A stretch of 64,000 nucleotides of DNA from an uncultured Alphaproteobacteria bacterium (GCA_944393175.1 CALXZH010000027.1:54926-118925); one strand, 5' to 3'. Positions 6,130 to 57,473 are shown, numbered from the stretch's first letter. Notes: a model not told the origin generated them from the letters alone. A program made the numbers and translations.

Positions 6130-7203
6130 ATGAAAATTCTAGTAGGTATGAGCGGCGGGGTTGATTCTTCCGTCGCAGCTCAATTGCTCAAAGAACAAGG
6201 AAACGAGGTTATCGGGGCAACAATGTCAATTTGGGACAAAAATCAACATTTTGCCAACTTAACCGGAAAAGGTTGCTTTTCGCCGCATGAAGAACAAGAT
6301 GTTCAAGCTGCAAAAAAAGTATGTGAAAAATTAAATATACCCTATTATGTCGTTGATTGTACGGAACAATATAAAAAAATTGTGTTATCTAATTTTCGCT
6401 CAGAGTATTTATCGGGAAGGACGCCTAATCCTTGTGTTTTATGCAATGCAACAATCAAATTTGAGGCTCTCCCCTTAGCGGCTCGCGCTTTGGGAATTGA
6501 ATTTGATAAATTTGCAACGGGACATTATGCAAAAGTTGCTTTTAATCCGCAAAACGGGCGTTATCAACTCTTCTCGGGCAAAGATACAAAAAAAGACCAA
6601 GCCTATTTTTTATATCGCTTATCTCAAGAACAATTGGCAAAAATTGTTATGCCTTTAGGCGATTTTACAAAAATCGAAATCAGAGAAAAAGCGCAAAAAG
6701 CCGGATTGGAAGTTTGCAACAAACCGGACAGTCAAGATTTTTATACCGGCGATATTAACGATATTATTCAAGCGCCACTTAAAAAGGGAAATTTCGTAAA
6801 CAAAGACGGCAAAATTTTAGGCCAACACAACGGTTTTTGGAAATTTACAATCGGACAACGCAGAGGGCTCGGCATTTCTGCAGAAAAGCCTCTTTATGTT
6901 ATCGATCTTATTCCTGAAAAAAATGAGGTTGTTCTTGGCTTTGATGATGAAACTTTACAAAACGGCGTTATTGCCGATGCTTTTAATTGGGTATCGGTAG
7001 AGCCGCCTCTTAGTCCATTTACTTGTCAGGCTAAAGTTCGTTCCTCTCAAAGGCCGGTTACTGTTTGCGTTACTCCTTTGAATGATAACAGTGCAAAAGT
7101 TGAATTTGATGTTGCGCAAAAGGCGCTAACCCCCGGACAGTCCGTTGTTTTATATGATGATGCGCTTGTCTTGGGCGGCGGTTTTATTCAATCCGTATTT
7201 TAG
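6130..7203 (+). CDS. mnmA: tRNA 2-thiouridine(34) synthase
   Basis: MKILVGMSGGVDSSVAA PP-loop, the conserved PNPCVLCN block, and a typical 357-aa length. Confidence 0.95.
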   Translation: MKILVGMSGGVDSSVAAQLLKEQGNEVIGATMSIWDKNQHFANLTGKGCFSPHEEQDVQAAKKVCEKLNIPYYVVDCTEQYKKIVLSNFRSEYLSGRTPNPCVLCNATIKFEALPLAARALGIEFDKFATGHYAKVAFNPQNGRYQLFSGKDTKKDQAYFLYRLSQEQLAKIVMPLGDFTKIEIREKAQKAGLEVCNKPDSQDFYTGDINDIIQAPLKKGNFVNKDGKILGQHNGFWKFTIGQRRGLGISAEKPLYVIDLIPEKNEVVLGFDDETLQNGVIADAFNWVSVEPPLSPFTCQAKVRSSQRPVTVCVTPLNDNSAKVEFDVAQKALTPGQSVVLYDDALVLGGGFIQSVF

Positions 7204-7235
7204 AAAAAAGCCCGCATCTTAGCGGGCTTTTTTTT
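7204..7235. terminator. Bidirectional intrinsic terminator between convergent mnmA and the ParB-like gene
   Basis: An A-run, the hairpin GCCCGC-atctta-GCGGGC (7210-7227), then a T-run (7228-7235). Confidence 0.75.
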
Positions 7236-7748
7236 CTAGACTTCCCAACTTCTGGAAAACTCTTCATCCTTAAAGAGTGATGCCAAGCCGGTTATTTGTT
7301 TGAGCCTTAAAACCTCATCGGCGGACATGCCGATGTTTTTACATATCCATGCGTCACTTTTGCCCATTTCAAGCAATTCTGCCACTATATTGCTCATTAA
7401 ATCAACATTATGTGATCCTCTGGCGCGGTTATGTCTGATGGTGGAAGCCATTCTATCCCCTAGGGGTTTGTCAATTACGACGACCGGCATCAGCCCTTTT
7501 TCGCGCTCATAAATCCGTTTGCTGGTTAGCATGGTGGTATAGCGGTGAAAACCATCTACAACTATATATTGATCTTTTTCTTTATCATGGTAACAAACAA
7601 TCGGTTGCGTAAAGCCATCTTCCCAAATCGAAATCTCCAAAAGTTTCATTTCGGGCGGGGCTACGCGATTGGGGTTATAGTCATTGGCTTTTATTTTTTC
7701 TACCGGTATTGCTTGAACGTTATAAACCGGACTTTTGAAATCACTCAT
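7236..7748 (-). CDS. ParB/sulfiredoxin-fold protein, IbrB-like
   Basis: Motifs KANDYNPNRV and YIVVDGFHRY (DGxHR box). I prefer the ATG at 7748 (MSDFKSPVY), which follows an AAGGA SD and lies 10 nt after the upstream stop. The track start at 7850 would overlap the upstream gene by 92 nt. Confidence 0.8.
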   Translation of the reverse strand: MSDFKSPVYNVQAIPVEKIKANDYNPNRVAPPEMKLLEISIWEDGFTQPIVCYHDKEKDQYIVVDGFHRYTTMLTSKRIYEREKGLMPVVVIDKPLGDRMASTIRHNRARGSHNVDLMSNIVAELLEMGKSDAWICKNIGMSADEVLRLKQITGLASLFKDEEFSRSWEV

Positions 7749-7758
7749 TTGTTTTTCC

Positions 7759-9060
7759 TTATAAATTTCTGTATTTTTCCAACAATTCTCGTTCTCTTTC
7801 CGCTTGGCGCTTGGTTTGGGTAAAGCCCATATATTTACACAAGTGGTCATTTTTTAAGATACACACTGCCATTCGTTTCCATGAAGGTATATCTATGGTG
7901 GATTTAATGTCATCCGTATTATCCGGCGTGCCTAAAAAACGAATTTTATCACGGCTTTTGTTATAACCGCTCGGCCCGTTATGCTTTATCGGATAGTTAC
8001 ACTCTTCCAATTCTTTTAAGGCTGCTTCGTTTACAACTCCTCCCGTCTTCCACCAAAACTTTATGGATGTTTTGAACTTGGCTATATAGTTTTGCCGCAT
8101 ATTTTCAGGCAGTGTGGCCAGCAGAAATTTTACGTAAGAACGCCATGTATGACCGGGAGGAAGCGTAAATTTTCTGGCTCCAAGCGCCTTAGTATTGCCG
8201 TAAATGGCTCCGAAATTTGCGCCTTGAACTCTTCCGACTACTCTTATCCAGGTATCGGGCTCCAAAACGCGATACAAATTCAGGCTGTCTTTGGCACTTT
8301 CGTGATATGGGCTGGCAACCCTCATTTGATTGATGGACAGACCCGCTTTATAAAACAAGTCATATATGTGATTATAGTCAAAGCCAAATTTGCCGTTGGC
8401 TATCCAGACATCTTTCGTGGTCCAATCATATAACGGATAAGCGTGATATAAGTTGTCTCCCATTTTTGTGGTCCACTTGCCGTTACCTAAACTTATTTTT
8501 TTATCATTGGCGTAGGCACGGTATCGATTAAGCGACTCGTCGGCCCTGATACCCAATAAACAAACCGTTGTTCCTTTATGGGTTCTGGCATACCAATGGC
8601 TAAATTCGGCATAAAAATCTTCTTGCGGCATTTTATATTTGTAAAAATCAAAATGATGATTTTGCAAATTTATTATGTAATCTTGCTTGGGCATCGGACG
8701 AACCCAGGCGCTTTCCATATCCGGATCCCATGTATACCAATACATTTGATAATTACTTACCGCGCAACGAGAGGCCTGCGGAATACAAACCCAATAGGGT
8801 TCTATATCATGAATATTGTTTTCAAACATACGGGTTACAAAATCCGTCGTGGTTTGATATTGAGCCTCAAAATCTTGATGAAATACCCCTATTTTCTTCT
8901 CAATATTATGGCGGCGCTTATAGTCCAAAACTAAATTTAACAATAACCCGCTGTCTTTACCGCCCGAAAAAGAAACATAGATATTATCAAAATTTTCAAA
9001 TATATATTGCAGGCGATTTTGCAGTGCATCATAAACGTTTATATCTAAATATTTTTTCAA
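7759..9060 (-). CDS. PP-loop ATP pyrophosphatase of the PAPS-reductase family with a DUF3440-type C-terminal extension (IbrA-like)
   Basis: SFSGGKDS PP-loop, verified at nt 8950-8973. Also LLGIRADESLNR and a C-terminal WKRMAVCILKNDHLCKYMGF block. Its start overlaps the upstream gene's stop as ATGA. Confidence 0.85.
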   Translation of the reverse strand: MKKYLDINVYDALQNRLQYIFENFDNIYVSFSGGKDSGLLLNLVLDYKRRHNIEKKIGVFHQDFEAQYQTTTDFVTRMFENNIHDIEPYWVCIPQASRCAVSNYQMYWYTWDPDMESAWVRPMPKQDYIINLQNHHFDFYKYKMPQEDFYAEFSHWYARTHKGTTVCLLGIRADESLNRYRAYANDKKISLGNGKWTTKMGDNLYHAYPLYDWTTKDVWIANGKFGFDYNHIYDLFYKAGLSINQMRVASPYHESAKDSLNLYRVLEPDTWIRVVGRVQGANFGAIYGNTKALGARKFTLPPGHTWRSYVKFLLATLPENMRQNYIAKFKTSIKFWWKTGGVVNEAALKELEECNYPIKHNGPSGYNKSRDKIRFLGTPDNTDDIKSTIDIPSWKRMAVCILKNDHLCKYMGFTQTKRQAERERELLEKYRNL

Positions 9061-10313
9061 AGCTTTAGAGCCTCCTCTTTACTAATCATTCGGCACACAT
9101 TGGACAGAACATTCTTTTTACGTTCTAAATTATCGCTTATTAATTGCTCTAAATTGGTTTTGACCCAAAAATCATGAATATTTACGTGCCGTCCTATGCC
9201 CTTAGAATTTACACTTTCCAAACCTTCTATCTTACTCTTATAATTGAATGTCTGAGAAAAATAAATAATATTATTGCAGATTTGCATATCTAAGCCAAAC
9301 TTATCCACGCCATAGGTGCAAAACATTATATCCGAATGCCTTTCAAATTCTTTTATGGCTTTCTTTTTGTTGGTTTTTCCGGTAAGTTCAACACAGTTAA
9401 TATCCGTAAAGAACCGGCTTTCTTTGAAAAATGTCAGTTCATCCAAAAATTTTGTATAAACTATCGCTTTTTCGCCTTGTTCAACTATTTTCTTTACCAA
9501 TTCTTGCAGTTTTTGTAATTTATTGTTGGATAAAGTATACATTCGCTGAAAATTTTGTACGACATCCATAAAGACGACTTGTTCCTTATTTTGTAAAAAT
9601 TTTATCTTTTCATCACTATAGCTTTTTTCTTCCTGCGGGGTTAGGTCAAAGTAATAATCATTTTGGGTTATTTCAAGCTTTTCTCCGAAATCATAGCCCA
9701 AAACATAAGGTTTCATATATTCAAATACTTTTGCTTCGTCTTCGGGGCGAGACCACCGCCTCATTACCAAATAGTTGCTATATTTAAACGGCATAAATAT
9801 ATGGCCGAACTGCTTTTCGTTCATGCGTAATATTTTACTGCTCATAAATTCAATTTGCGAATATAAATCTATCAAACCTTGCGCTAACGGGATACTGCTT
9901 AATATCAAGCGATAAGCAAAGTGCGAACTTAACGAAAGCAAACGTTGCGTTCGTCCTGCCTCCGTGTTTTTTATGGTAATGCTCTCGTCTACCACGCAAA
10001 ATATTTTGAAATTATGTGTCAAATTATATAGTTCCAAATATTTTTCATCCGAGGCCGAAATGCTTTCTATTGAATAAAAATAAATTCTATGGCGAAACGT
10101 ACGATTGTTTTTTTTGATTTCGTTCATATACATTTTTGTCGCCAAAAATCCGGCAGGAGCTATCCAAACCACAAAATCGACATCTTTTAGCTTTGCAGCC
10201 ACCAATGCAAGAGCCGTTTCGATTTTTTTATTAATTTTATTTATAAACAGAATCCCCGATTTTAGCTCAGATAGTCGTTGATGTGCCTGTTCTTTTGTTT
10301 TTTGTTCATCCAT
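9057..10313 (-). CDS. SNF2-like helicase-fold protein with degenerate ATPase motifs
   Basis: VVDESITIKN aligns with the DExH/KN motif II. LILSSIPLAQGLIDLYSQIEFM aligns with LLLTGTPxQN...L..FL. AIVYTKF...VELTGKT...FGLDMQICNNIIYF aligns with the helicase-C lobe. No GxGKT is present where motif I should be (ILFINKINKKIETA). Confidence 0.6.
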   Translation of the reverse strand: MDEQKTKEQAHQRLSELKSGILFINKINKKIETALALVAAKLKDVDFVVWIAPAGFLATKMYMNEIKKNNRTFRHRIYFYSIESISASDEKYLELYNLTHNFKIFCVVDESITIKNTEAGRTQRLLSLSSHFAYRLILSSIPLAQGLIDLYSQIEFMSSKILRMNEKQFGHIFMPFKYSNYLVMRRWSRPEDEAKVFEYMKPYVLGYDFGEKLEITQNDYYFDLTPQEEKSYSDEKIKFLQNKEQVVFMDVVQNFQRMYTLSNNKLQKLQELVKKIVEQGEKAIVYTKFLDELTFFKESRFFTDINCVELTGKTNKKKAIKEFERHSDIMFCTYGVDKFGLDMQICNNIIYFSQTFNYKSKIEGLESVNSKGIGRHVNIHDFWVKTNLEQLISDNLERKKNVLSNVCRMISKEEALKL

Positions 10314-10409: not shown

Positions 10410-10425
10410 TGGCACAAAAATTGCA
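10410..10425 (+). promoter_or_regulatory. Sigma-54 (-24/-12) promoter upstream of flgI
   Basis: TGGCACaaaaaTTGCA fits TGGCAC-N5-TTGCA exactly, about 45 nt upstream of the flgI ATG. Sigma-54 control of flagellar basal-body and hook genes is established in Caulobacter-type hierarchies. Confidence 0.6.
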
Positions 10426-10470: not shown

Positions 10471-11595
10471 ATGAAAACACTTTCTTTTAGAAAATCAGCA
10501 ATTTTGACCTTGGTTTGCTCTTGGTTTGTGTGCTTGCCTGATTGGACTTGGGCAAGTTCAAGAATCAAGGATATTGCAGATTTTGAAGGCGTGAGAGAAA
10601 ACCAGTTAGTCGGTTACGGACTTGTGGTTGGTTTGAATGGTACGGGAGATAACATCAAATCCATTAACTTTGCCAAAGAAAGCTTGATAAGCATGCTTGA
10701 CCAACTCGGAATTAATGCTCGCGACGGGCAGCTCAAGTCAAAAAATATTGCTGCCGTTATGGTGACCGCCAGCTTGCCGCCTTTTGCACGCCAAGGAAGC
10801 CGCATTGACGTGACGGTCAGCGCCATGGGTGATGCCAAAGATTTGCAAGGCGGAACCTTGATTGCAACTCCTTTGAGCGCTGCAAACGGTGAAATCTACG
10901 CTCTGGCTCAAGGGCAAATTGCAACCGGCAGTGTTTCGGCCAGAAGTAACGGAAATTCTATCACCAAAGGTGTTCCGACTTCAGGTAGAATTGCCAATGG
11001 TGCAATCATAGAAAATGAGGTCGATTTCTCTTTGGAAGATTTAAAAAATATTCGTATTGCTTTACGCAATCCTGATTTTACCACAGCCAGACGTGTTTCC
11101 GATGCCATTAATGCAATGCTTGGTCAACCGGCGGCAAAAGCTACCGACCCAACGACGGTTGATTTGGAAATTCCTGCCGAGTATCGCGGCAAAGTCGTCG
11201 ATTTGATGACAAAAATCGAACAACTGCAAGTTCAACCTGACCAATTGGCTAAAGTCGTTATTGATGAAAGTTCAGGAATTATTGTCATCGGCAAAGATGT
11301 TAAAATCAATAAATTAGCCATTGCACAGGGCAATTTAACCATCAAAATCTCGGAAACTCCTTTAGTTTCCCAACCTTTGCCTTTTTCTGACGGTGTTACC
11401 GTTACGCAAGATTTAACCGCTATTGACGTTAACGAAAGTGTTAACAGTAAACTCAGCGTGTTGGATGCAGGGGTTAATCTGCAAGAGCTCGTTGACGGAC
11501 TTAATGCCTTAGGCGTTACTCCCAGAGATTTAATCAGTATTTTGCAAGCCGTGAAAGCAAGCGGTGCTTTGCAAGCAGATATTGAGGTGATGTAA
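10471..11595 (+). CDS. flgI: Flagellar P-ring protein
   Basis: A signal peptide followed by SRIKDIADFEGVRENQLVGYGLVVGLNGTGD, which is typical of FlgI. Confidence 0.95.
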   Translation: MKTLSFRKSAILTLVCSWFVCLPDWTWASSRIKDIADFEGVRENQLVGYGLVVGLNGTGDNIKSINFAKESLISMLDQLGINARDGQLKSKNIAAVMVTASLPPFARQGSRIDVTVSAMGDAKDLQGGTLIATPLSAANGEIYALAQGQIATGSVSARSNGNSITKGVPTSGRIANGAIIENEVDFSLEDLKNIRIALRNPDFTTARRVSDAINAMLGQPAAKATDPTTVDLEIPAEYRGKVVDLMTKIEQLQVQPDQLAKVVIDESSGIIVIGKDVKINKLAIAQGNLTIKISETPLVSQPLPFSDGVTVTQDLTAIDVNESVNSKLSVLDAGVNLQELVDGLNALGVTPRDLISILQAVKASGALQADIEVM

Positions 11596-11596
11596 A

Positions 11597-11965
11597 ATGA
11601 CTACCATGGCAGGAAATATAAACGATTTTGCCTCGCAGGGCTTGGTTTTGAATGTAAAACCAAACACCTCTTTGCTGGGTAATAAAATTTTCTCAAAAGA
11701 AGAGGCGAAAGAAACTGCTCAAGACTTTGAGGCATTCTTCATGACCAAAATGATGGAAAGCATGTTTGAAGGCATTTCAACCGATGGAATGTTTGGCGGT
11801 GGAAATGCCGAAAAAGTTTATCGCTCCTTGCTCCTTAACGAATACGGAAAAGCTATGGCAAAGACCAGTTCTATCGGCGTGTCCGATGATATTATGTCTG
11901 CAATTTTACAAATGCAGGAAGCCGCTTCTTCTCAAGCAAATGATAAAATTGAAGTAAAATTGTGA
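11597..11965 (+). CDS. flgJ: Rod-binding protein (FlgJ N-terminal domain only, no muramidase domain)
   Basis: AQDFEAFFMTKMMESMF motif, 122 aa, positioned immediately after flgI. Confidence 0.8.
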   Translation: MTTMAGNINDFASQGLVLNVKPNTSLLGNKIFSKEEAKETAQDFEAFFMTKMMESMFEGISTDGMFGGGNAEKVYRSLLLNEYGKAMAKTSSIGVSDDIMSAILQMQEAASSQANDKIEVKL

Positions 11966-11973
11966 GGTGAAAC

Positions 11974-12429
11974 ATGACTGAAACGATTTCTCAAAATGAT
12001 ATGAAAAATAAAATTACAGACTATTTAGAGATACTGTCTCAGTTTATGTCCTTAATTAAACAGGAAAACGAGGCATTAAGAAAATATGACGTGTTTACCG
12101 TCAGTTCTTTATATCCTCAAAAGGCTAAAATTGTGGCGGCTTATAGAAATATGGTTGCTTTCTTTATTAAAAACCAAGCATTGCTTAATGCTTTGCCCGA
12201 ACAGGAAAGAAACAATTTAAAGGCCGTTTCTGCGGAATTAGACACGCTGTTGCAGGAAAACAACTTATTATTAAAAACCAGAATGGAAACCAGTGAATCT
12301 GTGATTGGAACTATTGTCAATGCGGCAAAAGCAAGTACGAAAAAAAATGCTACCTCTTATGGGGCTCACGGGCAATTTTCTCCGGTTGACAATCATCACA
12401 GCTCTATGGCTATTAACAGTACATTTTAG
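11974..12429 (+). CDS. Probable flagellar chaperone, FlgN-like
   Basis: 151-aa helical protein (LEILSQFMSLIKQENEALRKYD...) located directly upstream of flgK-flgL. The call rests on position and composition. Confidence 0.5.
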   Translation: MTETISQNDMKNKITDYLEILSQFMSLIKQENEALRKYDVFTVSSLYPQKAKIVAAYRNMVAFFIKNQALLNALPEQERNNLKAVSAELDTLLQENNLLLKTRMETSESVIGTIVNAAKASTKKNATSYGAHGQFSPVDNHHSSMAINSTF

Positions 12430-12440
12430 GAGTTAAGACC

Positions 12441-14624
12441 ATGGTTATGTTAGCAGGATTACAGACTTCTCTCAGCGGCATGAAAGCGGCTCAGAATCAG
12501 TTAAATATCGTCAGCAGCAATATTGCCAATGTCGATACGGTAGGCTATACCAGAAAAACAGCTGCTCAAAATAATGTGGTCTTGGGTGGTTCAAGCGTAG
12601 GCGTCCAACTCGGCGACATCACTCGTACCGTTAACGAAGGATTGCTCAAGAGCTATCTCTCTTCTAACAGTACAACCAATAACTATAGTGCTCAAAGCCA
12701 ATATTTGGAAAAAGCCGAAACTTTACTGGGTACTCCTCAAGGAAATAACTCAATTGCCGCAAATGTCAGCGATTTGCAATCGGCAATCGAAACCTTTGCT
12801 TCCGATGTGACTTCAGCCTCGGGAAGATATACGCTTTTGACTAATGCCAGCACTTTAGCCAATCGTTTAAATTCTCTTACAACCGAAATTCAAAAATTAC
12901 GTGGCGATGCTGATTTAAATGTTTCGGAATCTTGTGATAAGATTAACGACTATTTGGATAAACTTCAGGAACTTAACGACCAGATTGTTAAATATAAAGT
13001 CTTAAATTATGATGGCGTGGCTGATTTGGAAGACCAACGCGACCAAGCCCTGCGCGAGCTTAGCGGATTAATTGATATTTCTTATTTTAAGCGTGAAAAC
13101 GGTGAAATCGTCATTCAAACCAACGGCGGTGTCACTTTGTTGGACAGATACCCTCACTACTTGTCACACAGTGCAGTCGCTCAAGCCAGCCCAACCAGCT
13201 CTTATGCCGGCGGCGGAATTAACGGAATTATGGTCGATGGGGAAGATATTACCAATTCAATTAATGACGGCGAACTCAAAGGTTTAATTAATATTCGAGA
13301 TAATCTATTACCTTCGCTGCAATCACAACTCAATGAATTGGCAGGTGTTTTGAAAGACAATGTCAATCAGATGCATAACCGTGGTACCGCTTATCCAAAT
13401 GCTCCGTCGGAACTGACGGGTACAAGGACCTTTATTGATCCTGATAACCAAAATATTCAGATTTCTAACGGTGATGTACATTTTACGATTTTTGATGCCG
13501 ACGGTAAACAAGTTGCAACAACAACTTTGCTCGGCGGCTTAGGCTTTCCTGATGCCGGAGGCAGCGTGTCAGATATGGTCGGTTTGCTCAACGACTGGTT
13601 GACTGCTGCAGACGGCGCTAACCTGCCCCAAGCTTATGCGCAAATTAATGATGACGGAAAACTTGTCATTAACACGGGAGACAGCAATTACTCCTTTGCC
13701 GTACAAGATTTGGCCTCATCAACTCCGGGAAGTGAACAACAAGATGTAACTATTCAATATGATGTTAACGGTGATAATATTGCTGACCGCACGATGCAAG
13801 GATTTTCTTACTTCTTCGGCCTTAATGATTTTTTCACCAGCACGATGAATGAACATGTCTATGATTCAAATGTTTTGGGTTTGACTGCAAATCTTGGTGT
13901 AACAAGTCCCATCACTCTCAATTTTGCAACGGGGAATAACACTAATCTCGGATCCATAACTATTTCCTCCAGTGATAACTTACAAACAATTGTTAATAAA
14001 ATTAATTCAGATACCAATTTGAATGGGCAAATTAAAGCTTCGCTTATTCCAAACGGAAACGGTTATGTCTTGCAAATTAATAATACTTCGGGTGAACAGT
14101 TGGAAATCAGTGAACAAGCCGTTAATGGAAAAACATCCGGTTTCTTGAGCAGAATCGGAATGCATCCTTCAAATGCTGATGCGGCAGGCTCGATTGCCGT
14201 TCGTGAAGATTTGATGGAGAATCCGGCTGCTATTGCTGCAGGCTCACCAGAATTCAATACTAATTCCGGTGAATTTCAGCTTAATCCGGCCGCTAACAAT
14301 ATTGCTAATGATATGGCTTCGGTGTTCAGCGAATCTTTAACCTTTGCTCAAGCCGGAAATATTGCCAAGACCAGCACGACTATTGCAAACTATGCTTCAA
14401 CTTTTGTCGGCTCCGTGGCTACGGAAACCAGCAGTGCTCAATCAAATTTGAGCTATCAACAAGAATTAACCGATTCAATTTCAATGAAAGAGGCTACCAT
14501 AAGCGGCGTCGATCAAGACCAAGAATTGGCTCAGTTGATTATCTTTCAGCAGAGCTATGCCGCTTGCGCACAAACCTTTACCGCGTCTAAAGAAATGTTA
14601 GACATCTTACTCGGTATGCTTTAA
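12441..14624 (+). CDS. flgK: Flagellar hook-associated protein 1
   Basis: N-terminal GLQTSLSGMKAAQNQLNIVSSNIANVDTVGYTRK and C-terminal ELAQLIIFQQSYAACAQTFTASKEMLDILL. Confidence 0.9.
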   Translation: MVMLAGLQTSLSGMKAAQNQLNIVSSNIANVDTVGYTRKTAAQNNVVLGGSSVGVQLGDITRTVNEGLLKSYLSSNSTTNNYSAQSQYLEKAETLLGTPQGNNSIAANVSDLQSAIETFASDVTSASGRYTLLTNASTLANRLNSLTTEIQKLRGDADLNVSESCDKINDYLDKLQELNDQIVKYKVLNYDGVADLEDQRDQALRELSGLIDISYFKRENGEIVIQTNGGVTLLDRYPHYLSHSAVAQASPTSSYAGGGINGIMVDGEDITNSINDGELKGLINIRDNLLPSLQSQLNELAGVLKDNVNQMHNRGTAYPNAPSELTGTRTFIDPDNQNIQISNGDVHFTIFDADGKQVATTTLLGGLGFPDAGGSVSDMVGLLNDWLTAADGANLPQAYAQINDDGKLVINTGDSNYSFAVQDLASSTPGSEQQDVTIQYDVNGDNIADRTMQGFSYFFGLNDFFTSTMNEHVYDSNVLGLTANLGVTSPITLNFATGNNTNLGSITISSSDNLQTIVNKINSDTNLNGQIKASLIPNGNGYVLQINNTSGEQLEISEQAVNGKTSGFLSRIGMHPSNADAAGSIAVREDLMENPAAIAAGSPEFNTNSGEFQLNPAANNIANDMASVFSESLTFAQAGNIAKTSTTIANYASTFVGSVATETSSAQSNLSYQQELTDSISMKEATISGVDQDQELAQLIIFQQSYAACAQTFTASKEMLDILLGML

Positions 14625-49569: not shown

Positions 49570-49968
49570 TTATTTTAGTAAGCTTTGCGTTGCATTCAAC
49601 AATCCGTTTACGGTATTGCTGCGAATTTTATATTTGGTATTTATTTTATTGGTTTTATACTGATTATAATAATTATAGTCATCTTCTGCTATGTCTTTGT
49701 AGCCTTGGTAAGCTTCACGATTTTGTTCGGCGGCGGCTGAACCATCTCCGCTTAACCCCATTGCTGCGACACGAGCTCGTCTTTGTGCCAAATTTTGCTC
49801 CAAGATATTGGTTTTTCTTTCACGATTTGCCTGTTGGTCATGGACTAATTTATTTTGTTCCATTTTATAATTTTTTTGCATATTGCGATTATCTTCAACC
49901 ATATTATACAAGTCTTGCGCACTGGCTAAGCCCTTGCTGGCATTTTCCATTGTCATTAATTGTCCCAT
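49570..49968 (-). CDS. Phage-cluster hypothetical protein (Q/N-rich, helical)
   Basis: 132-aa ORF, last in the operon. I recognise no family. Confidence 0.45.
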   Translation of the reverse strand: MGQLMTMENASKGLASAQDLYNMVEDNRNMQKNYKMEQNKLVHDQQANRERKTNILEQNLAQRRARVAAMGLSGDGSAAAEQNREAYQGYKDIAEDDYNYYNQYKTNKINTKYKIRSNTVNGLLNATQSLLK

Positions 49969-49979
49969 AGTTTTTCTCC

Positions 49980-51884
49980 TTACTCTTTTAATTTAATTTC
50001 TACCACGGCTGAAAGCAGGGTAAACGATAACGGTTCATCACTTTTGATACTCCACATCGGCTTATCCATATCACGTATCCAACCTATGGCTCTCATTTGA
50101 ACATCTCCCGAATAGGTCATCGGCGGAGCGTCAAAAATTTTATCTTGATGTATTCGTTTTAGCGGATACTGGAAATATCCTCCGCCAATATCAATACATA
50201 AAGATTTACTGTTGATTATACGGAATCTGGCGTTTATTACTCTTAGTGCTTTAGGGGCATAAGGTCTTTCGCTTTCTACCATATAAGGTAAAGGCTCTAT
50301 CCAGTGTTCATAAGGTATGCCGACAAGTAATTCGTCGGCTTCATCCAAAAGGTGAATTTCTCCCTCCTCTACCGGAAATTTGCCTAAACTAAATCCATTT
50401 GCCAAAACAACGACTTCTTCTCCTTCCAAATGTTCCAACCCGCTCCAATCTCTTTGCGGTTGTTCGGAAGTTAAGCGAATGGCACAATCCGAATAATAAT
50501 CATCAGCCAATTTTTCAAGAAAATAGCCATTTTGACGTTTGACACAAAAATATACGTTGTTGCCGATTACGGCAACTGACAAAAACTTGCCTTTGGTTGT
50601 TAATTTGCTCCAAGCGGTCACTTCTTCGGTTCGGTAGCTGGTCAGACTGGAAACACTGCCATCTTCCAAAACAATATAAAGGACACACTCATTGGCATCA
50701 AAGCTTATATCTCGAGGAGATGCTATAATATCATTGGAAAGAATCGTTAAATCCTTAGCCTGATAAGCTTGCTCAACATCTGCATAGAGAAATTCTCTTA
50801 ACTGACGACCATTTCGGGAAACAAATACCGTAGCACCATCTATTTGCTGAGGCATAAGAATTTTGTCGGAATACATACCGACGCTGGTTTGCCGTTTGAG
50901 CTGAATATTTTCAGGCGTCAAAGGTTCTCCGGTCACCATCCATTCAGCCCCGGTGGTAAATACAAGTAAGTGACGGCTCGAAACAACGGCTTTGATTGCA
51001 TTGACCTGGTCAGATAAAATGCCAAACTCAATTGCTTCATCGTCTAATGCATCGCCTAAGTCAAAATTAAACAAATCCGATGATTTTGAAAGCCATAAGC
51101 GGTTTGGCAAATCTCGCGATCCTCCGATAACCATGCGGTTTTGGTGGAAAGTAACTGAAACAGGCCAGCCTCTTGCATTTGAAAAAGCAGCCTCGGCCCA
51201 GTCGTTGGTAACATCCGTCGAAGTAAAATTTTTTAAAACAGTGGCTTCTACTACCTTAGCACTTGTTACCTTTGTTATCTTGGCCAGACCTTTCTGATAC
51301 TTAATATAGCTTCCGGCTTGACTGGACATCCAGATATCTGTTTCTGAGCTCAAGGTAACATTTCCACTGCCTCCGTTGGCCCAAATTTTAGGCTTTTTTT
51401 GATAAAAATTATAGAATGGCATAAAAATCATTCCTGCATCATCACTATAATATTCCCAATCTTCAATTTTCCAGACTTCATTATTATTTCTGGTGATTTG
51501 TTTAGGCGCTACATCGGGATGAACTATCAAAAATGTATCGGCACTTTGAGTATAGTTGAGCTGCCAAAGCTGATCTCCCGACCAAGGTGTTGTCAGTTCT
51601 GCTATGATGTTATCATCTTTAAGAACTTGCAGCTTATTATCCGTAAGGCATAACAGATATATTTGCTCTGTATTAAACTCAAACGGAAGCAGGCGAAGCG
51701 GCTTATCGACTTTGCTTACAAACTGCAAACCTTTTCTACGAGATACGCCTCCGGTGGGGTGAATTATTACATTTTCAAGATGCCTCGCGCCGTTGGCATA
51801 AACTCTCAAATCGCCTCGACCCAGCAAATCAGTCGACATTTGTCCCGCGGTAAAATTGGTTTTAACAGATCCTAAGTTACTCAT
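49980..51884 (-). CDS. Tail tubular protein B-like (T7 gp12 position)
   Basis: 634 aa, directly after the gp11-like gene with an ATGA overlap. The N terminus NFTAGQMSTDLLGRGDLRVYANGARHLENVIIHPTGGVSRRKG resembles podoviral nozzle proteins as I recall them. Confidence 0.5.
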   Translation of the reverse strand: MSNLGSVKTNFTAGQMSTDLLGRGDLRVYANGARHLENVIIHPTGGVSRRKGLQFVSKVDKPLRLLPFEFNTEQIYLLCLTDNKLQVLKDDNIIAELTTPWSGDQLWQLNYTQSADTFLIVHPDVAPKQITRNNNEVWKIEDWEYYSDDAGMIFMPFYNFYQKKPKIWANGGSGNVTLSSETDIWMSSQAGSYIKYQKGLAKITKVTSAKVVEATVLKNFTSTDVTNDWAEAAFSNARGWPVSVTFHQNRMVIGGSRDLPNRLWLSKSSDLFNFDLGDALDDEAIEFGILSDQVNAIKAVVSSRHLLVFTTGAEWMVTGEPLTPENIQLKRQTSVGMYSDKILMPQQIDGATVFVSRNGRQLREFLYADVEQAYQAKDLTILSNDIIASPRDISFDANECVLYIVLEDGSVSSLTSYRTEEVTAWSKLTTKGKFLSVAVIGNNVYFCVKRQNGYFLEKLADDYYSDCAIRLTSEQPQRDWSGLEHLEGEEVVVLANGFSLGKFPVEEGEIHLLDEADELLVGIPYEHWIEPLPYMVESERPYAPKALRVINARFRIINSKSLCIDIGGGYFQYPLKRIHQDKIFDAPPMTYSGDVQMRAIGWIRDMDKPMWSIKSDEPLSFTLLSAVVEIKLKE

Positions 51885-52450
51885 AACCTTGCCTCCATTA
51901 ATGAATAGTCTTCCAAGGTTCTCGGGGTTCCTTGTTGGGCGTCGGTCAACCGCGCCTTATTGATGGTTTCTTCGGCCAATTTTTCAAGTAACTCCGCGCG
52001 TGTGGTACTTTCGGTCAAAGGCAAACAAAATTCTGCCGCCAATTTGGCCGTTAATGCTTCGCAAAAAAATGCCGGAAACGTACTCTCATGTGGGCGAAAA
52101 ATATAACTTAAGCTAACATTTTCGGCATTTGTATGCAGCCTGTTCTCATAAATTCTGTATTCGATGCCCCTGCCCCTTTTGCCGCTTCCGGCTGAGATAA
52201 CGCGTAAAAAATCGTTGGGCAGCAAATATGCATACTGATAATCGGCTACAGGTACATTATTTAATCTGGGCAAAGTTTTTTGTGCTTTGGCAAAACTCCA
52301 CGGATAAGAAGATAACAGACTATCACGAATCAGAGGATACAAGCTGTAAGCTATCTCTGCTTCAGCCGTGCCGTCTTCAAACGAGGTAATGCCTTCCGCG
52401 CCGATTTTCAGTAATGCATTGGAACATATCCCTATATTGGTATAACTCAT
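51881..52450 (-). CDS. Tail tubular protein A / adaptor-like (T7 gp11-like)
   Basis: ICSNALLKIGAEGITSFEDGTAEAEIAYSLYPLIRDSLLSSYPWSFA parallels the gp11 N-terminal pattern (N.iL..iG...vssle......a......l.s.gW.Fn). ATG at 52450 follows a GGAG SD. Confidence 0.55.
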   Translation of the reverse strand: MSYTNIGICSNALLKIGAEGITSFEDGTAEAEIAYSLYPLIRDSLLSSYPWSFAKAQKTLPRLNNVPVADYQYAYLLPNDFLRVISAGSGKRGRGIEYRIYENRLHTNAENVSLSYIFRPHESTFPAFFCEALTAKLAAEFCLPLTESTTRAELLEKLAEETINKARLTDAQQGTPRTLEDYSLMEARL

Positions 52451-52460
52451 AAACTTCTCC

Positions 52461-52501
52461 ATATAAAAAAGGAGAAACCTTTAATGCATAAAGGTTTCTC
52501 C
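52461..52501 (-). terminator. Strong hairpin plus T-run between the head and tail-tube genes
   Basis: 13-bp perfect stem GGAGAAACCTTTA-atgca-TAAAGGTTTCTCC, followed in the minus sense by TTTTTTATAT. Confidence 0.5.
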
Positions 52502-52531
52502 TGCCTTTGCTATTAATGTTATATAACTTTA

Positions 52532-52789
52532 CTAGGCCGCAGCTGAAGTAAAGTCTGATACTGTGACGGCACCATCGCTAATAGATGTTACGGCCAAAAT
52601 TGCCGGTGTAACCGTACTTTGGTTATCGGCAACGGTCAGTATCATATCTCCTAAACGCGCAAACGGGGCAATATCATCAAAATAATTTGCTCCCTTGACG
52701 GTGCTTAAGGAATCTGAGGTGGTGTAATTCCAAAGCGTAAAACCATTGGCATAGGCCATTACACTAAAATCTTTTGACATAAACGACAT
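52532..52789 (-). CDS. Small virion-module protein (85 aa), function unknown
   Basis: ATG at 52789 follows a GGAG SD and lies 11 nt after the capsid stop. Confidence 0.45.
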   Translation of the reverse strand: MSFMSKDFSVMAYANGFTLWNYTTSDSLSTVKGANYFDDIAPFARLGDMILTVADNQSTVTPAILAVTSISDGAVTVSDFTSAAA

Positions 52790-52800
52790 ATTATTTCTCC

Positions 52801-53640
52801 TTATTCGCTGATTGAAGATTCTTCTTTGCATTTAATACGAACGACACCGGTCGGATCAATTAAGCATGCGCCTTGGCTCATCATATTATTAACAAAGTGA
52901 GCTGCATGGTCACCGTGCCATGTGATGTCGCTTTGGACATCTTTGCCGCAAGCATGACCGACTGCTGTTTTATGGAAAATAAAGCATTGACGCTCCGTTC
53001 CGTTTAAGGGCAAACCGGTATGCATAATCCAGTTGATACCTAACCATTTGCGGCTTTCGGTTCCTTTTAAGAACGGAAGATTATCGCCGGCATAATCCGA
53101 ATTTGAGAACTCGGCAATATTGAGCAAGGCATTCCATTGGTAAGGGCCTACCAAACCAAAACGTTGTCCGTCATCGGGAACATCGTTTGAGTTTAATTTG
53201 GCAAAGGCATCCAAAATGTCTTTTTTGCTCATAGCCAAGCTATAATCTCCAACATCATTATCTTCGGGGGCTTTGCTCAAGGCTTCAATAATCAATTCAT
53301 CGGTTTTGCGACCCAAGGCATAAGCACCGGAATTGGCAATGACGCGGCGCTCATCAATGCTGACTTTTAATTCATCCAAAGCATCTACCCAATCGCCGGC
53401 ATAGTAATCTTGAAGTTCACACTCTATCGGGGTATGGTCCAAAGACATTACCGGGACTAAACCATGGCGTGCTTTTTGTGAGGCCGTACCTTTGCCTACC
53501 TTTTGAAAGACTGTTGATGAGCCTTTGACATTGTTTTTGGTTCGAACCGCATTTCTCAATTTTGAGCCGTTTTGTTGGTAAGCCAAATGCACATCGGCTT
53601 CAAATTGTTTGATAAAGGATTCGGTTATTTGTGTTGACAT
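52801..53640 (-). CDS. Phage major capsid protein
   Basis: 279 aa, with a strong AGGAGG SD, positioned after the scaffold. FIKQFEADVHLAYQQNGSKLRNAVRTKNNVKGSSTVF...DYYAGDWVDALDELK...GRKTDELIIEAL resembles podoviral (BPP-1/N4-type) coat proteins as I recall them. Confidence 0.75.
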   Translation of the reverse strand: MSTQITESFIKQFEADVHLAYQQNGSKLRNAVRTKNNVKGSSTVFQKVGKGTASQKARHGLVPVMSLDHTPIECELQDYYAGDWVDALDELKVSIDERRVIANSGAYALGRKTDELIIEALSKAPEDNDVGDYSLAMSKKDILDAFAKLNSNDVPDDGQRFGLVGPYQWNALLNIAEFSNSDYAGDNLPFLKGTESRKWLGINWIMHTGLPLNGTERQCFIFHKTAVGHACGKDVQSDITWHGDHAAHFVNNMMSQGACLIDPTGVVRIKCKEESSISE

Positions 53641-53670
53641 ATTTTCCTCCTATTTGTGATTAACCTATAT

Positions 53671-53702
53671 AAAAAAGCCCTGAAAAGGTTTATTTTTCAG
53701 GG
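53671..53702 (-). terminator. Hairpin plus T-run overlapping the scaffold stop, upstream of the capsid gene
   Basis: CCCTGAAAA-ggtttat-TTTTCAGGG, followed in the minus sense by CTTTTTT. Confidence 0.4.
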
Positions 53703-54412
53703 TAGAGTTTTTCAAATCCGCGCGTAATCTTATTGATATAAGCACTGTCTTTGTCGCGCCAGTAACGCGGATCTTCCATCATCTTGCGTAAGGTCTGTTC
53801 GCTCAACTCGCCTTCATAGCCGTTGTCTTTGCTAAGTATCGGTTCGTTAGACGACATCATCTTATACAAGGCTATTACGCCTTCGGCCGTTGAACCTAAA
53901 GCGTCATAGACTTCCGTGCTCAAATTTTGCTTTGCCCAAGCTGCCAGTTGGCGAGAAACTTCATCAAATCTTTCTTGCCCGCCAAAATAATTTATCAGTT
54001 TGGAAAGTTGCTTTTGAGCCTCAAAGTTTACGGTCAACTGGTCTAAGACCGGAATGACACGTTCATTAGCCAAGTCATAAACAAATTGTGCTTGATCGTT
54101 GGTGAAGCCATGTTCATAAAATTGTTTGAACAATTCTTCATCTCGGTCCAACAATTCGTTGGGAATGTTTATCTGATATTTATCATAACTTTCCGGCATA
54201 TTGCGGTTATGGGTTTCTATCAGATTTTCATCTCTGATGGCCATAGAATTATAATCATCTATCAATTCTTGGAGTTTGACCGTTTGTGTGGCCTCATCCC
54301 AAAATTTTGGCGGCAAATTTGCAGGTTTGCCGTTGGTTTGAGATGGAAAGCCTGAATTTTGCTGTGCGGCAAGATTCATTGCGTTGAAATTTTCAACTGG
54401 TTTTTCTTTCAT
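53690..54412 (-). CDS. Probable capsid scaffolding protein
   Basis: 240-aa acidic, helical protein between the portal and capsid genes. The call is positional. Confidence 0.5.
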   Translation of the reverse strand: MKEKPVENFNAMNLAAQQNSGFPSQTNGKPANLPPKFWDEATQTVKLQELIDDYNSMAIRDENLIETHNRNMPESYDKYQINIPNELLDRDEELFKQFYEHGFTNDQAQFVYDLANERVIPVLDQLTVNFEAQKQLSKLINYFGGQERFDEVSRQLAAWAKQNLSTEVYDALGSTAEGVIALYKMMSSNEPILSKDNGYEGELSEQTLRKMMEDPRYWRDKDSAYINKITRGFEKLYPEK

Positions 54413-54431
54413 CTTTTTTTCCTTTCTTTGG

Positions 54432-54656
54432 TTAATTTTCGTCTGATATCTTGTTTTGGATTATTGCAACCAGATGTCTTTGGCCTTCCAGATGACGCAA
54501 AGCATCAGAAGAACTTTCCGGTCCCAAGTATCTCTCTTGAGTCAGACGTTTTAGGTAAGAGAGGACTATTTGCCCCTCTCTGCTCGAAAAGCATTTTACA
54601 AATGCTTCACGAATTTGTGCTTCCGACATTTGTCGGGTATCATACAGCGGCAACAT
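54432..54656 (-). CDS. Small phage protein, possibly Bbp19-like
   Basis: FVKCFSSREGQIVLSYLKRLT resembles the Bbp19-type motif as I recall it. ATG at 54656 has a GGAG SD; the track start at 54677 is a TTG. Confidence 0.4.
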   Translation of the reverse strand: MLPLYDTRQMSEAQIREAFVKCFSSREGQIVLSYLKRLTQERYLGPESSSDALRHLEGQRHLVAIIQNKISDEN

Positions 54657-56169
54657 CTCCGTTCTCCGTAGTTTCAACCTCTGTTTGGGGTGGCGTTTCT
54701 TTGATTAAATTTGAGGGAACGCATAAGGTTTTTCCCAACCATCTTGAGGCTTCTTCCACGTTAACCGCCATTAAGGCATCTTGTCCGAACGAGGCTAGCA
54801 TTGAAACCCATTCGCTGACATTGGTAATGTCTTTTCTTGTTTGTGCTAACGCTAAAGGCGACTTATACTGTAAGTCAACTATCTTGCCGTCTAAATCAAA
54901 ATTCGGAATATCTCCGCGGCGGCGTAAAATATGAAACGCCCTCTTTAATAACGGCGTAAGCAGCTCTGATTGCAACCGTCCGAAGGTTGCGCCCAAAATA
55001 CGTGCTACTTCGGCCGAACGTTCCAAAACTTCAGTCGCGGTCATATTCGGCGTGGCAATTTGTGATAGTCTGTCTGCCAGCAAAGAATGATTTATTCTTT
55101 GGCGCAAATCGGACAATATGAGCTGTGAAACATCAAAATCACCAGGAGCACTCAATGGCGTTAAGCCTTTAGAACCCACCGCTTTGGGAATAATTGCTCC
55201 AGGAACGAGTTTGATGTTATCGGGATTTAGGATGCCATCGTCATCTGCTTGCCAAATTCCCGTTACCGCAATAGAGGCATTTTTCAAAATCAATTCCACA
55301 ACTTTATTGGCGGTTTTTATATCAGGCAATGCTTTCATGACCGGGGAACGGCCATAAATTTCTCCGGGGGCTTTTAACCACCTAAAGTTAATAAACGGTG
55401 AGGTTTCAAATATTCCTTCTTTTAAGACAAAGCTATCTTCATAGCCCCCATTTTCATCCCAAGCAAAAGCTATATAATTATATCCGCATGCGCCCGAATT
55501 ATAATTTCTCGGCATTACAGCCTCAATAATACTTACTTGGCTGTCAGGGTCTTGCTGCAATCTTTCTTGCATCAAGGGCGGAATGTCTGCTTCGGGAAAG
55601 CGCGTCCTAATGCCCTCAAAATTGAGTTTGGAACAGCGAAAAGTCGTATCAATTTTTCCGTCGGCACTCTCTTCTATGGCAATTTCTCTTAGCGGAACGG
55701 CATAAAAATGAAAAGCCGTGGCTTCTCCGATGCTTGATTCTTCAAACATTAAACAAGCCGTCCCTACCGTTACCAAATCCAAATAACACTGGTGAACTTC
55801 GACTGCAAAATTTGAATGCTCAAAATTTTGCAACATTACCTCTGAGGCCTTCTCCAAAATAGGAGCGACTTGTTCTTGTTCGGTCGGACTTAATTCATTT
55901 CCCGGTCTTAGTCCAAACCATTTTGCCCAAGGCGGGGTTAATTCAGAAAGTAAAGATGAGGCTAATTGGTCAACCGCATCCGGTGCCGTTCCATCATAGA
56001 GGCACAAATTTTTCTTTGTACCGGGCTGTGTGTCATAGCTAAAGGAACTGACATTTTCTCTTAAAGGAAAGGCATATTCGTAGCATTCTTTCCAATGATT
56101 CTCCCAGTTTTGTTTTCTCTCGGAGGCTTTCTTATATCGGCTTACCAATCTTTCAAGTTGAAACTCCAT
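54640..56169 (-). CDS. Portal protein (T7 gp8-type head-to-tail connector)
   Basis: 509 aa. N-terminal LVSRYKKASERKQNWENHWKECYEYAFPLRE matches the head-tail-connector family pattern. It sits between the terminase/lysis genes and the scaffold. Confidence 0.8.
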   Translation of the reverse strand: MEFQLERLVSRYKKASERKQNWENHWKECYEYAFPLRENVSSFSYDTQPGTKKNLCLYDGTAPDAVDQLASSLLSELTPPWAKWFGLRPGNELSPTEQEQVAPILEKASEVMLQNFEHSNFAVEVHQCYLDLVTVGTACLMFEESSIGEATAFHFYAVPLREIAIEESADGKIDTTFRCSKLNFEGIRTRFPEADIPPLMQERLQQDPDSQVSIIEAVMPRNYNSGACGYNYIAFAWDENGGYEDSFVLKEGIFETSPFINFRWLKAPGEIYGRSPVMKALPDIKTANKVVELILKNASIAVTGIWQADDDGILNPDNIKLVPGAIIPKAVGSKGLTPLSAPGDFDVSQLILSDLRQRINHSLLADRLSQIATPNMTATEVLERSAEVARILGATFGRLQSELLTPLLKRAFHILRRRGDIPNFDLDGKIVDLQYKSPLALAQTRKDITNVSEWVSMLASFGQDALMAVNVEEASRWLGKTLCVPSNLIKETPPQTEVETTENGDVAAV

Positions 56170-56171
56170 GG

Positions 56172-56396
56172 CTATTCTCCCAAGAGATTTTTTCGTTTGA
56201 GGCTATCTTCTTTTTCTCCAAGAATGCCGTTATATGAAGTACGAATCGTGCCTTCTTGTCCGCGACGTTGACGTGCCAAATTTTCTTGTCTTTCTTCTTC
56301 GGCCTTTCTCTTGGCTTCTGCTTCCGTATCAACAACCGGAACTATCGGTTGTTCTACTTTCGGCGTACTGAAATACTTAAATACTCCTCCCATCAT
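56172..56396 (-). CDS. Small charged phage protein
   Basis: 74-aa ORF that ends immediately before the portal start. Confidence 0.4.
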   Translation of the reverse strand: MMGGVFKYFSTPKVEQPIVPVVDTEAEAKRKAEEERQENLARQRRGQEGTIRTSYNGILGEKEDSLKRKNLLGE

Positions 56397-56757: not shown

Positions 56758-56761
56758 GTTA

Positions 56762-57462: not shown

Positions 57463-57473
57463 CTTAGTTTTCC

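Follow-up and report, generated by a model that had tools for sequence, protein, structure and literature searches.

A 64,000-nucleotide stretch of DNA from an uncultured Alphaproteobacteria bacterium (GCA_944393175.1, CALXZH010000027.1:54926-118925; the whole stretch is referred to here as the window) contains a minus-strand cassette of three genes. These encode a Snf2-fold protein (g1), a PP-loop enzyme of the IbrA type (g2) and a ParB/Srx-fold protein of the IbrB type (g3). An earlier note, made from the sequence alone, singled the cassette out as a self-contained unit and as a candidate for an undescribed DNA-modification, defence or regulatory system. Sequence comparisons now point to a phage origin, with a single fixation of the trio in gut Alphaproteobacteria, where g1 is predicted to have lost its motor activity. 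The most plausible function is control of gene expression.

The three genes are co-directional and translationally coupled, and this is borne out by the listing of open reading frames (ORFs) and by direct reading of the sequence (Table 1). However, the overlap between g1 and g2 had been given as ATGA, and this must be corrected. The four bases common to both genes read TTGA, with the TTG start codon of g2 overlapping the TGA stop codon of g1 and GAGGAGG 10 nt upstream. The spacer between g2 and g3 and its AAGGA read as first described. The start of g3 requires some comment. A mechanical ORF call uses an upstream ATG at 7850, inside g2, as do a few database entries (P0241, P0242, and P0244; 204 aa each). 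This long form is probably mis-called, because most entries and all distant homologues begin at MSDFKSP, giving a protein of 170 aa. At its other end the cassette shares a bidirectional terminator hairpin with the convergent mnmA gene. The hairpin holds up well (-20.7 kcal/mol, z = -4.85, none of 200 shuffled sequences as stable), and was overlooked by a simple terminator scan because A/T runs lengthen its stem. As proposed, mnmA and flgI both lie on the opposite strand. The cassette has no meaningful repeats and no Rfam family, its sub-threshold "leader" matches being the terminator hairpin, and the GC (guanine plus cytosine) content of the region is unremarkable.

Searches with profile hidden Markov models, which the note had suggested as a check, place all three proteins in the expected families, with scores above the Pfam curated cut-offs. 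For g1 these are SNF2-rel_dom (27.0 bits) and Helicase_C (25.5 bits). A profile of the g1 family matches INO80 and SsoRad54 in the PDB (E about 1e-20; 2.6e-20), and an AlphaFold2 (AF2) model with a predicted local distance difference test score (pLDDT) of 77 resembles ISWI, CSB, and Rad26 in Foldseek, with template modelling (TM) scores of 0.73-0.76. Together, Pfam, profile and Foldseek recover the two RecA-like lobes and the Snf2-specific helical insertions. However, the catalytic motifs of the family (GxGKT, DExx, and QxxxRxxRxGQ) have largely gone. INKINKKIE takes the place of motif I, ESVNSKGIGR that of motif VI, and DES alone survives. Therefore, g1 belongs to the Snf2 family in fold and ancestry, but in this lineage it is predicted to be a pseudo-ATPase. 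It can be called a conserved pseudo-ATPase because the complete core fold is accompanied by a low ratio of nonsynonymous to synonymous substitution (dN/dS; see below) despite the lost motifs.

The earlier note had described the Snf2 protein as degenerate without qualification. This stands for the window, but the degeneracy is limited to the gut-alphaproteobacterial clade. There, every copy has a non-P-loop sequence at motif I, has lost the arginines of motif VI, and partly retains motif II (DE, DD, DN, or DG). In contrast, all phage and non-alphaproteobacterial copies in the genome, metagenome and viral alignments have GTGK[TS] at motif I, DE at motif II, and R..R.GQ at motif VI, apart from a single viral copy that reads GTAKT at motif I. 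Among 244 proteins of the family, 128 are intact for motifs I and VI and 102 are degenerate for both; among 127 cluster representatives the corresponding numbers are 108 and 6. One clue to how this came about is that the 67 degenerate sequences, the one in the window included, form one clade in a neighbour-joining tree, with no intact member inside it. Its sister group is made up of sequences with intact motifs, and some of these are on prophage-like contigs. This suggests that the motor was lost once and that vertical descent followed. The family itself is discrete, with proteins of about 418 aa in a search of about 5.8 billion proteins. An exhaustive profile search yields 273 clusters at E <= 1e-30, and therefore the family is distinct and of modest size. 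Longer members have extra regions that match nothing in Pfam, bar one GNAT fusion, and these offer no functional hint.

The second protein has an N-terminal PP-loop domain of the PAPS-reductase fold (PAPS_reduct, PF01507, 40.9 bits) followed by DUF3440 (PF11922, 259.8 bits, profile positions 1-181 of 182). It resembles E. coli YbdN over its whole length (33% identity over 420 residues, E 3e-70) and phrog_2302 (365.9 bits), so that the IbrA-like identity first proposed is upheld. The PP-loop is present where it had been noticed. Further residues are invariant from E. coli to Firmicutes phages, namely D63/E65, G170-R172-E175-S176-R179 (GxRxDESxxR) and a YDW motif. An assignment of g2 to CysH was considered and rejected, with 16.2 bits against a cut-off of 165.1 for TIGR00434, 16 against 154 for NF002537, and no ECGLH motif. 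C408 is the most conserved cysteine of IbrA and is Ala in Lactobacillus phage CR28, which makes a CysH-like thiol mechanism unlikely. Sequence and profile searches of the PDB gave no structure of the IbrA or IbrB family, only remote matches. Those closest to IbrA cover the PP-loop domain only; the adenylyltransferases FAD synthase and CysD come first, followed by CysH and LarE. The safest inference is that IbrA would cleave ATP between its alpha and beta phosphates, with AMP transferred to, or activating, an acceptor.

The third protein matches ParB_N (27.6 bits) and is 50% identical to E. coli YbdM, in agreement with the IbrB-like identity given to it; phrog_2159 scores 273.9 bits. It carries the motifs of the IbrB family (NxYNPN, VDGxHR, and TIRHNRARGxH), two of which had been picked out in the note as NDYNPN and VDGFHRY. 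These three motifs are invariant, to the extent shown for g3 in Table 1, in a set of 20 sequences drawn from E. coli, from phages and from six phyla. The C-terminal region is helix-turn-helix-like, and the remote PDB matches of the IbrB ParB N-domain are Noc, Spo0J, SbnI, and SerK. These features fit a putative nucleotide-binding, DNA-associated protein. A partition ParB was also considered for g3 and was discarded. TIGR00180 (parB_part) gives 20.3 bits against a cut-off of 58.45, the protein has 170 aa and there is no adjoining parA.

How widely is the trio conserved? One genome for each of 185,579 species was scanned with an alignment of the g1 family, and the order of g1, g2, and g3 was determined by tblastn. 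This produced 77 loci. Order and orientation are kept in 74 and the other three end at a contig edge, which supports the description of the trio as a self-contained syntenic unit. In nearly all related loci, phages included, g1 and g2 abut or overlap. Most of the 77 loci are in metagenome-assembled genomes (MAGs) of gut-derived Alphaproteobacteria, e.g., Candidatus Scatocola (Rhodospirillales according to NCBI), and the trio is also found in Opitutales, Arcobacteraceae, Melioribacteraceae, Oscillospiraceae, Chitinophagaceae, and Holosporaceae. Identity climbs along the operon, from 25-83% for g1 and 41-93% for g2 to 62-98% for g3, the last across phyla. dN/dS (Nei-Gojobori, unsaturated pairs) is 0.025-0.075 for g1, 0.011-0.069 for g2 and 0.006-0.074 for g3. 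In the same genomes it is 0.03-0.06 for flgI and 0.08-0.11 for mnmA. Because the values for the trio are no higher than those for flgI and mnmA, all three must be functional genes under strong purifying selection.

The chromosomal setting is ordinary. Clustering of flanking ORFs, together with two annotated contexts, places the alphaproteobacterial clade in at least four synteny groups with housekeeping genes (Table 1). In the flanks of the alphaproteobacterial loci there is no recurrent gene for an integrase, a transposase, restriction, a toxin or another defence function. Housekeeping flanks, the lack of recurrent mobile or defence genes and ordinary GC content therefore indicate a long-resident chromosomal operon rather than a mobile island.

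Three neighbourhoods deserve mention in their own right. In one synteny group the trio adjoins flgI-flgJ and other flagellar genes or lies within about 4 kb of them. The intergenic region between flgI and g1 contains, 45 nt before flgI, a perfect sigma-54 promoter (TGGCAC-N5-TTGCA), and this is also present upstream of flgI in related loci with the same arrangement. A table in PMC9068703 places flagellar and chemotaxis genes among those most up-regulated in an E. coli citR deletion mutant, in which ybdNM is derepressed. Secondly, one alphaproteobacterial synteny group has a CitMHS-family citrate/anion transporter gene directly beside the trio, and so, independently, does an Opitutales genome. 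PMC9068703 describes E. coli ybdNM as controlled by the LysR repressor CitR/YbdO, which is also implicated in regulation of the citCDEF citrate lyase genes. This adjacency may be a coincidence, there being two independent occurrences plus E. coli only. Thirdly, another alphaproteobacterial sub-lineage has the motor-dead trio beside a nitroreductase gene, together with oppositely oriented genes for a small and a large terminase and, after them, a Cpn10-like gene. This suggests that the neighbour there is derived from a phage.

A search of 50,697 phage records with tblastn reveals the other side of the distribution. The trio is present in the Streptococcus thermophilus Moineauvirus phages CHPC877 (genes 0027-0029), CHPC1062, CHPC1148, and D4276, in Streptococcus equinus phages, in the Lactobacillus helveticus phages CR28 and phiAQ113 and in Fusobacterium phage phiFN37. 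It is also present in Listeria phage fragments and in 90 Flavobacterium columnare phage records, FCV-1 and FCL-2 among them; the gene order in FCV-1 is Snf2-IbrB-IbrA. Dairy phages have the trio between the lysis cassette and cro/antirepressor genes, and in three phage groups the module stands beside cro or antirepressor genes. Two distant metagenomic relatives of g1 are on prophage-like contigs that also carry genes for tail proteins, Rad52, SSB, a methylase and lysis. The Oscillospiraceae trio adjoins a serine integrase at the end of a block of tail genes. Mycobacterium and Arthrobacter phages are among the IbrA matches and are not among the genera listed for g1.

IMG/VR, scanned with a profile built from diverse IbrA sequences, adds 80 viral loci. 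IbrB adjoins IbrA in 78 of them, as it does across the 10-nt spacer of the window and in all genome loci whose contig permits a view. A Snf2 gene is found 0-483 nt upstream in 28 of the 80 (35%). In 51 there is none within reach and, because 29 of these have ample flanks, the absence is real. The Snf2-less loci are located in early or recombination regions, among genes for YqaJ, NinG, Phg_2220_C or a ResIII helicase. The phage accessory module thus commonly takes two architectures, of which Snf2-IbrA-IbrB is one. That the degenerate g1 clade is monophyletic, with an intact and partly prophage-borne sister group, argues for a single domestication.

The two architectures have different companions in the viral loci. 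An ORF of about 120 aa beside IbrAB, in 22 IMG/VR loci and exclusively where the Snf2 gene is absent, resembles the C-terminal segment of DUF3440 alone (...ICKAIMRNDLALTTLGY...; positions 139-178, E 0.0012). Viral loci with the Snf2 gene often have one to three small conserved ORFs just upstream, which the cassette of the window does not. Apart from Phage_Gp111 in S. thermophilus phages, Pfam matches none of them, and they may belong to the module as additional phage-specific components.

Elsewhere in the window is a structural and lysis block like that of T7-like podoviruses. Species genomes contain at least 393 relatives of its portal, with identities of 64-89% in gut alphaproteobacterial MAGs and 53-60% in cultured Rhodospirillales such as Azospirillum, Magnetospirillum, and Terasakiella. 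The block could represent either a prophage family that is very common or a domesticated element like a gene transfer agent (GTA). A regulatory tie between the trio and a phage cluster at 49.5-60.9 kb had been suggested. It was abandoned, since portal relatives occur across Rhodospirillales that do not have the trio. With the portal family far wider than the trio, no specific coupling is shown.

Table 1. Features of the cassette and its surroundings in the window, and of related loci (L numbers; positions within the respective locus).
Feature	Position	Strand	Details
g1, Snf2-family protein	9057-10313	-	418 aa, ATG start; ORF listing and direct reading
Degenerate motif I (Walker A) of g1	10218-10244	-	INKINKKIE; MGTGKTxxA in phage relatives
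Motif II region of g1	9966-9995	-	VVDESITIKN; D109, K115, N116 invariant, E110 variable
Degenerate motif VI region of g1	9180-9227	-	EGLESVNSKGIGRHVN; Q..HR.YR.GQ with arginine fingers in phage relatives
g1-g2 translational coupling	9057-9077	-	GAGGAGG Shine-Dalgarno 9071-9077; TTGA stop/start overlap 9057-9060
g2, IbrA-type enzyme	7759-9060	-	433 aa, TTG start; ORF listing and direct reading
PP-loop of g2	8950-8973	-	SFSGGKDS; F31-S37 invariant from E. coli to Firmicutes phages
g2/g3 spacer	7749-7758	-	10 nt; AAGGA Shine-Dalgarno overlaps g2 stop codon; direct reading
g3, IbrB-type ParB/Srx-fold protein	7236-7748	-	170 aa, ATG start at 7748
Long form of g3	7236-7850	-	204 aa; probable mis-call
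NDYNPN of g3	7668-7685	-	Family motif NxYNPN
VDGFHRY of g3	7539-7559	-	V64, D65, G66, H68, R69 invariant; aligns with GERRxR nucleoside triphosphate-binding box of Noc (7ol9) and ParB
TIRHNRARGSH of g3	7410-7442	-	Family signature; invariant except S112
Bidirectional intrinsic terminator hairpin	7204-7235		Common to g3 and convergent mnmA; A-run and T-run on flanks
mnmA	6130-7203	+	
sigma-54 promoter	10410-10425	+	Also in L001-L005, L007-L009, L012
flgI	10471-11595	+	
flgI-flgJ/flagellar genes near trio	10471-14624		Also in L001-L013, L016, L027, L030, L035
T7-like block	49570-58970	-	Structural and lysis genes
Terminase	57474-58970	-	T7-like block
Endolysin	56762-57178	-	T7-like block; Hydrolase_2
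Holin	56377-56757	-	T7-like block; GTA_holin_3TM-like
Portal	54640-56169	-	T7-like block
Scaffold	53690-54412	-	T7-like block
Capsid	52801-53640	-	T7-like block
Tail tube	51881-52462	-	T7-like block
Nozzle	49980-51884	-	T7-like block
Synteny group 1			flgI-flgJ and neighbouring flagellar genes; 17 loci including the window
Synteny group 2			mutL, kdtA, lpxK
Synteny group 3			CitMHS transporter with rmlACD
Synteny group 4			Nitroreductase with terminase pair
CitMHS gene next to trio	L065 5701-7131; L082/L083 10174-11514		Downstream of g3 in L018, L021, L029, L034, L036-L038, L049; upstream of g1 in L065
Nitroreductase/terminase neighbourhood	L084 4338-6058; L085 1150-2870		Also the L055/57/58/61/62/72 group
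ORFs upstream of viral trios	L217 3889-4380		Cluster C2, 12 loci
ORFs upstream of viral trios	L178 3265-4560		Cluster C3, 9 loci
ORFs upstream of viral trios	L078 3619-4789; L079 3822-4852		
DUF3440-segment ORF	L188 5090-5461		Example from IMG/VR

What does the cassette do? The reading that we favour, with roughly even confidence, is that it is a chromosomally fixed ("domesticated") phage module of the IbrAB type, a DNA-acting regulator of target-gene expression in which the motor has been reduced to a scaffold. In this mechanism the three proteins would assemble as a complex on DNA. The ParB/Srx nucleotide-binding domain of IbrB, with its DGxHR and HNRAR boxes, and the helix-turn-helix-like C-terminus could provide nucleotide-gated DNA binding. 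IbrA would convert ATP to AMP and pyrophosphate, adenylylating or activating a substrate held on the DNA-protein complex. The phage Snf2 subunit might translocate or load the complex along DNA, and the sole role of its gut-alphaproteobacterial counterpart would be that of a DNA-binding or structural scaffold. If IbrAB and eib in E. coli are a guide, the output would most likely be altered expression of target genes, perhaps by means of a covalent DNA mark. In E. coli, IbrAB act as co-activators of prophage eib genes that are silent without them, a phenotype known only for ECOR-9 (Sandt et al., 2002, as cited in PMC6008420 and PMC4541368). Regulation of expression is ranked first because of this activation and because the module stands beside cro or antirepressor genes in the three phage groups.

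Several points weigh against this interpretation. The regulatory output comes, by way of the citations in PMC6008420 and PMC4541368, from one E. coli genetic study of a two-gene version that lacks the Snf2 gene. The complex is inferred from gene coupling alone. We know of no IbrA or IbrB with a known biochemical activity. The AF2 model of g2 has a pLDDT of 49 and is unusable for the DUF3440 domain, because the alignment was shallow (the homologues used were all at least 76% identical). Flavobacterium phages have the module between the terminase and portal genes, a position that does not speak for a switch regulator. Finally, a comparison of 60-odd related loci found no target site or operator upstream of g1, parS-like sites included. 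The sole recurrent element there belongs to the divergent flgI operon and is its sigma-54 promoter.

A second explanation, possible but to be held more tentatively, is that the trio is a covalent DNA-modification machine. IbrA would adenylylate a base or backbone position, IbrB and Snf2 would deliver it along DNA, and any effect on transcription would be secondary. The mark would shield phage DNA from host restriction and would act as a genome-wide or site-specific epigenetic mark in gut Alphaproteobacteria. ParB-like domains are recurrently paired with DNA-modifying enzymes, as in DndB/DndC, DpdB/DpdA (PMC12839542) and ParB-methyltransferase fusions, and the ParB part of phrog_498, a "DNA methyltransferase", is matched by IbrB (1.8e-10). 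The PP-loop of g2 is intact like that of DndC, to which there are weak matches. Snf2 helicases accompany modification in Dpd and DISARM, and g1 has weak matches to DpdE and DrmD. The module also lies in accessory or early regions of virulent phages. However, the literature search found no modification reported for phages with the trio. IbrA does not have the DndC cysteine cluster, C408 is dispensed with in CR28, and the cassette includes no enzyme for a sulfur, preQ0 or methyl donor. A dead motor is also poorly compatible with processive genome-wide marking in this host. Nevertheless, modification and regulation are compatible and not mutually exclusive.

What if the trio is a new kind of nucleic-acid modification machine altogether? 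In this hypothetical scenario, which we consider doubtful, a nucleotide-dependent ParB/Srx DNA clamp (or kinase) and a PP-loop adenylyltransferase would jointly place a new covalent mark on DNA or a DNA-bound protein, and the Snf2 motor would drive them along the phage genome. Phages would use the mark for host takeover or restriction escape, and gut Alphaproteobacteria would have exapted the motor-dead version as a site-restricted epigenetic regulator.

Anti-phage defence or superinfection exclusion, carried by prophages and retained by the alphaproteobacterial lineage, is unlikely. The domain logic is akin to parts of Dnd, Dpd, and BREX type 4, the integrase beside the Oscillospiraceae trio at a prophage end marks a typical site for defence cargo, and the PHROG category of IbrA is "moron/host takeover". 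Yet PADLOC-DB v2 gives no full-length system match, the best partial ones being ZorD (34 bits), DpdE (29.8 bits), and DndC (24.7 bits), with none for g3. The cassette has no nuclease or other effector, and the flanks of the 77 loci are free of defence genes. Furthermore, the trio is found in strictly virulent phages, and its slow vertical evolution, with dN/dS of at most 0.075, is unlike that of arms-race genes. The ATPase is dead precisely in the lineage with the chromosomal cassette. Enrichment next to defence genes, which the note had proposed to check, thus finds no support, and the idea of a defence island was dropped on account of the housekeeping flanks and the weak partial PADLOC matches.

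Still less credible is a decaying, functionless prophage remnant. It would account for the phage origin and the lost ATPase motifs of g1, but all three frames are intact with near-constant lengths in at least 60 species, translational coupling is retained, and dN/dS of 0.006-0.075, no higher than that of flgI and mnmA, contradicts it. Chance adjacency of an ordinary PAPS reductase, a partition ParB and an unrelated helicase, for which only the generic Pfam names PAPS_reduct and ParB_N speak, can be dismissed, being refuted by the low cysH and parB_part scores (16 bits vs. 165 and 20 vs. 58), the 260 bits for DUF3440, the absence of parA and a gene order kept in 74 of 77 loci and across six phyla.

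The cassette is of interest beyond this locus. IbrA and IbrB (YbdN and YbdM) rank with the most widely distributed gene pairs of phages and bacteria that have no assigned biochemistry, and they have one genetic phenotype. The association of a minimal Snf2 motor with IbrAB in about a third of the sampled viral loci is a firm indication that the module acts on DNA. The gut lineage, abundant in human and animal guts, is a natural experiment in which the module is kept under strong purifying selection with its motor inactivated. This sets a motor-independent core function apart from a motor-dependent function in phages. Dairy phages of Streptococcus thermophilus and Lactobacillus with the intact trio are tractable, engineerable systems. 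If a new DNA mark or a control of prophage and host transcription were involved, this would bear on phage-host conflict, dairy phage control and gene regulation in a little-known group of gut bacteria.

Comparison with known systems begins with those that share parts of the domain logic. The note had judged that the cassette matches none of Dnd, Dpd or BREX as a whole, and scores far below the cut-offs agree. Like Dnd (DndB/DndC; also SspD and BrxP), it combines a ParB/Srx-fold protein with a PP-loop ATP pyrophosphatase of the PAPS-reductase fold. However, g2 scores 18.6 bits against the TIGR03183 cut-off of 290.4, its PADLOC match to DndC extends over 100 residues, and there are no DndA-, DndD- or DndE-like ORFs in the cassette. 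IbrA has no conserved cysteine cluster and DndC has no DUF3440. Dpd, the 7-deazaguanine system (DpdA/B/C with DpdE/J), brings a ParB-like ATPase and Snf2-type helicases together in a DNA-directed process (PMC12839542), and this is the likeness to g1 and g3. The differences are that neither a TGT (DpdA) nor a DUF328 gene is present in the cassette or its flanks, that DpdC is missing, that g3 has no PADLOC match to DpdB, and that the DpdE match of g1 covers 65 residues. For BREX type 4, BrxP gives 16.1 bits over the PP-loop only (22 residues), BrxHI gives 17 bits and the flanks have no PglZ. Finally, g1 shares the complete two-lobe fold with the Snf2 remodeller cores (ISWI, INO80, CSB/Rad26, and SsoRad54), but it is a bare core with no accessory domains, and the Walker A motif and the motif VI arginines are lost.

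The closest relatives are found in E. coli and in phages. E. coli IbrA/IbrB (ECOR-9 island) and K-12 YbdN/YbdM belong to the same two protein families as g2 and g3 and share their signature motifs. Their genes likewise overlap or are coupled, and they too are linked to phages, as in PhiR5_2 (antirepressor-IbrA-IbrB). However, ybdNM and the PhiR5_2 genes are two-gene units without Snf2, whereas the window has the Snf2-fold gene fixed upstream. Instead of a Snf2 partner, ybdNM is paired with the LysR repressor CitR/YbdO (PMC9068703). The phage trios (CHPC877, CR28/phiAQ113, and FCV-1/FCL-2) consist of the same families, usually in the same order and with the same overlap, and are the direct evolutionary source. 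They keep GTGKT, DE, and R..R.GQ, which predicts active motors, and lie in accessory or early regions. In contrast, the copy in the window has a dead motor and core-gene flanks. The combination of Snf2 and IbrAB had been put forward as undescribed, and this is true in part. A literature search found no paper that recognises Snf2-IbrA-IbrB as a unit, names a Snf2 partner for IbrAB, gives a mechanism or reports functional work on any of the phage trios. On the other hand, the trio is common in phages and is annotated piecemeal in GenBank records, g1 as "DNA helicase" or hypothetical, g2 as "PAPS reductase" or IbrA, and g3 as "ParB-like" or IbrB. The component families are therefore known and the trio already stands in public phage records; what appears to be new is its single-origin, motor-dead, chromosomally fixed form.

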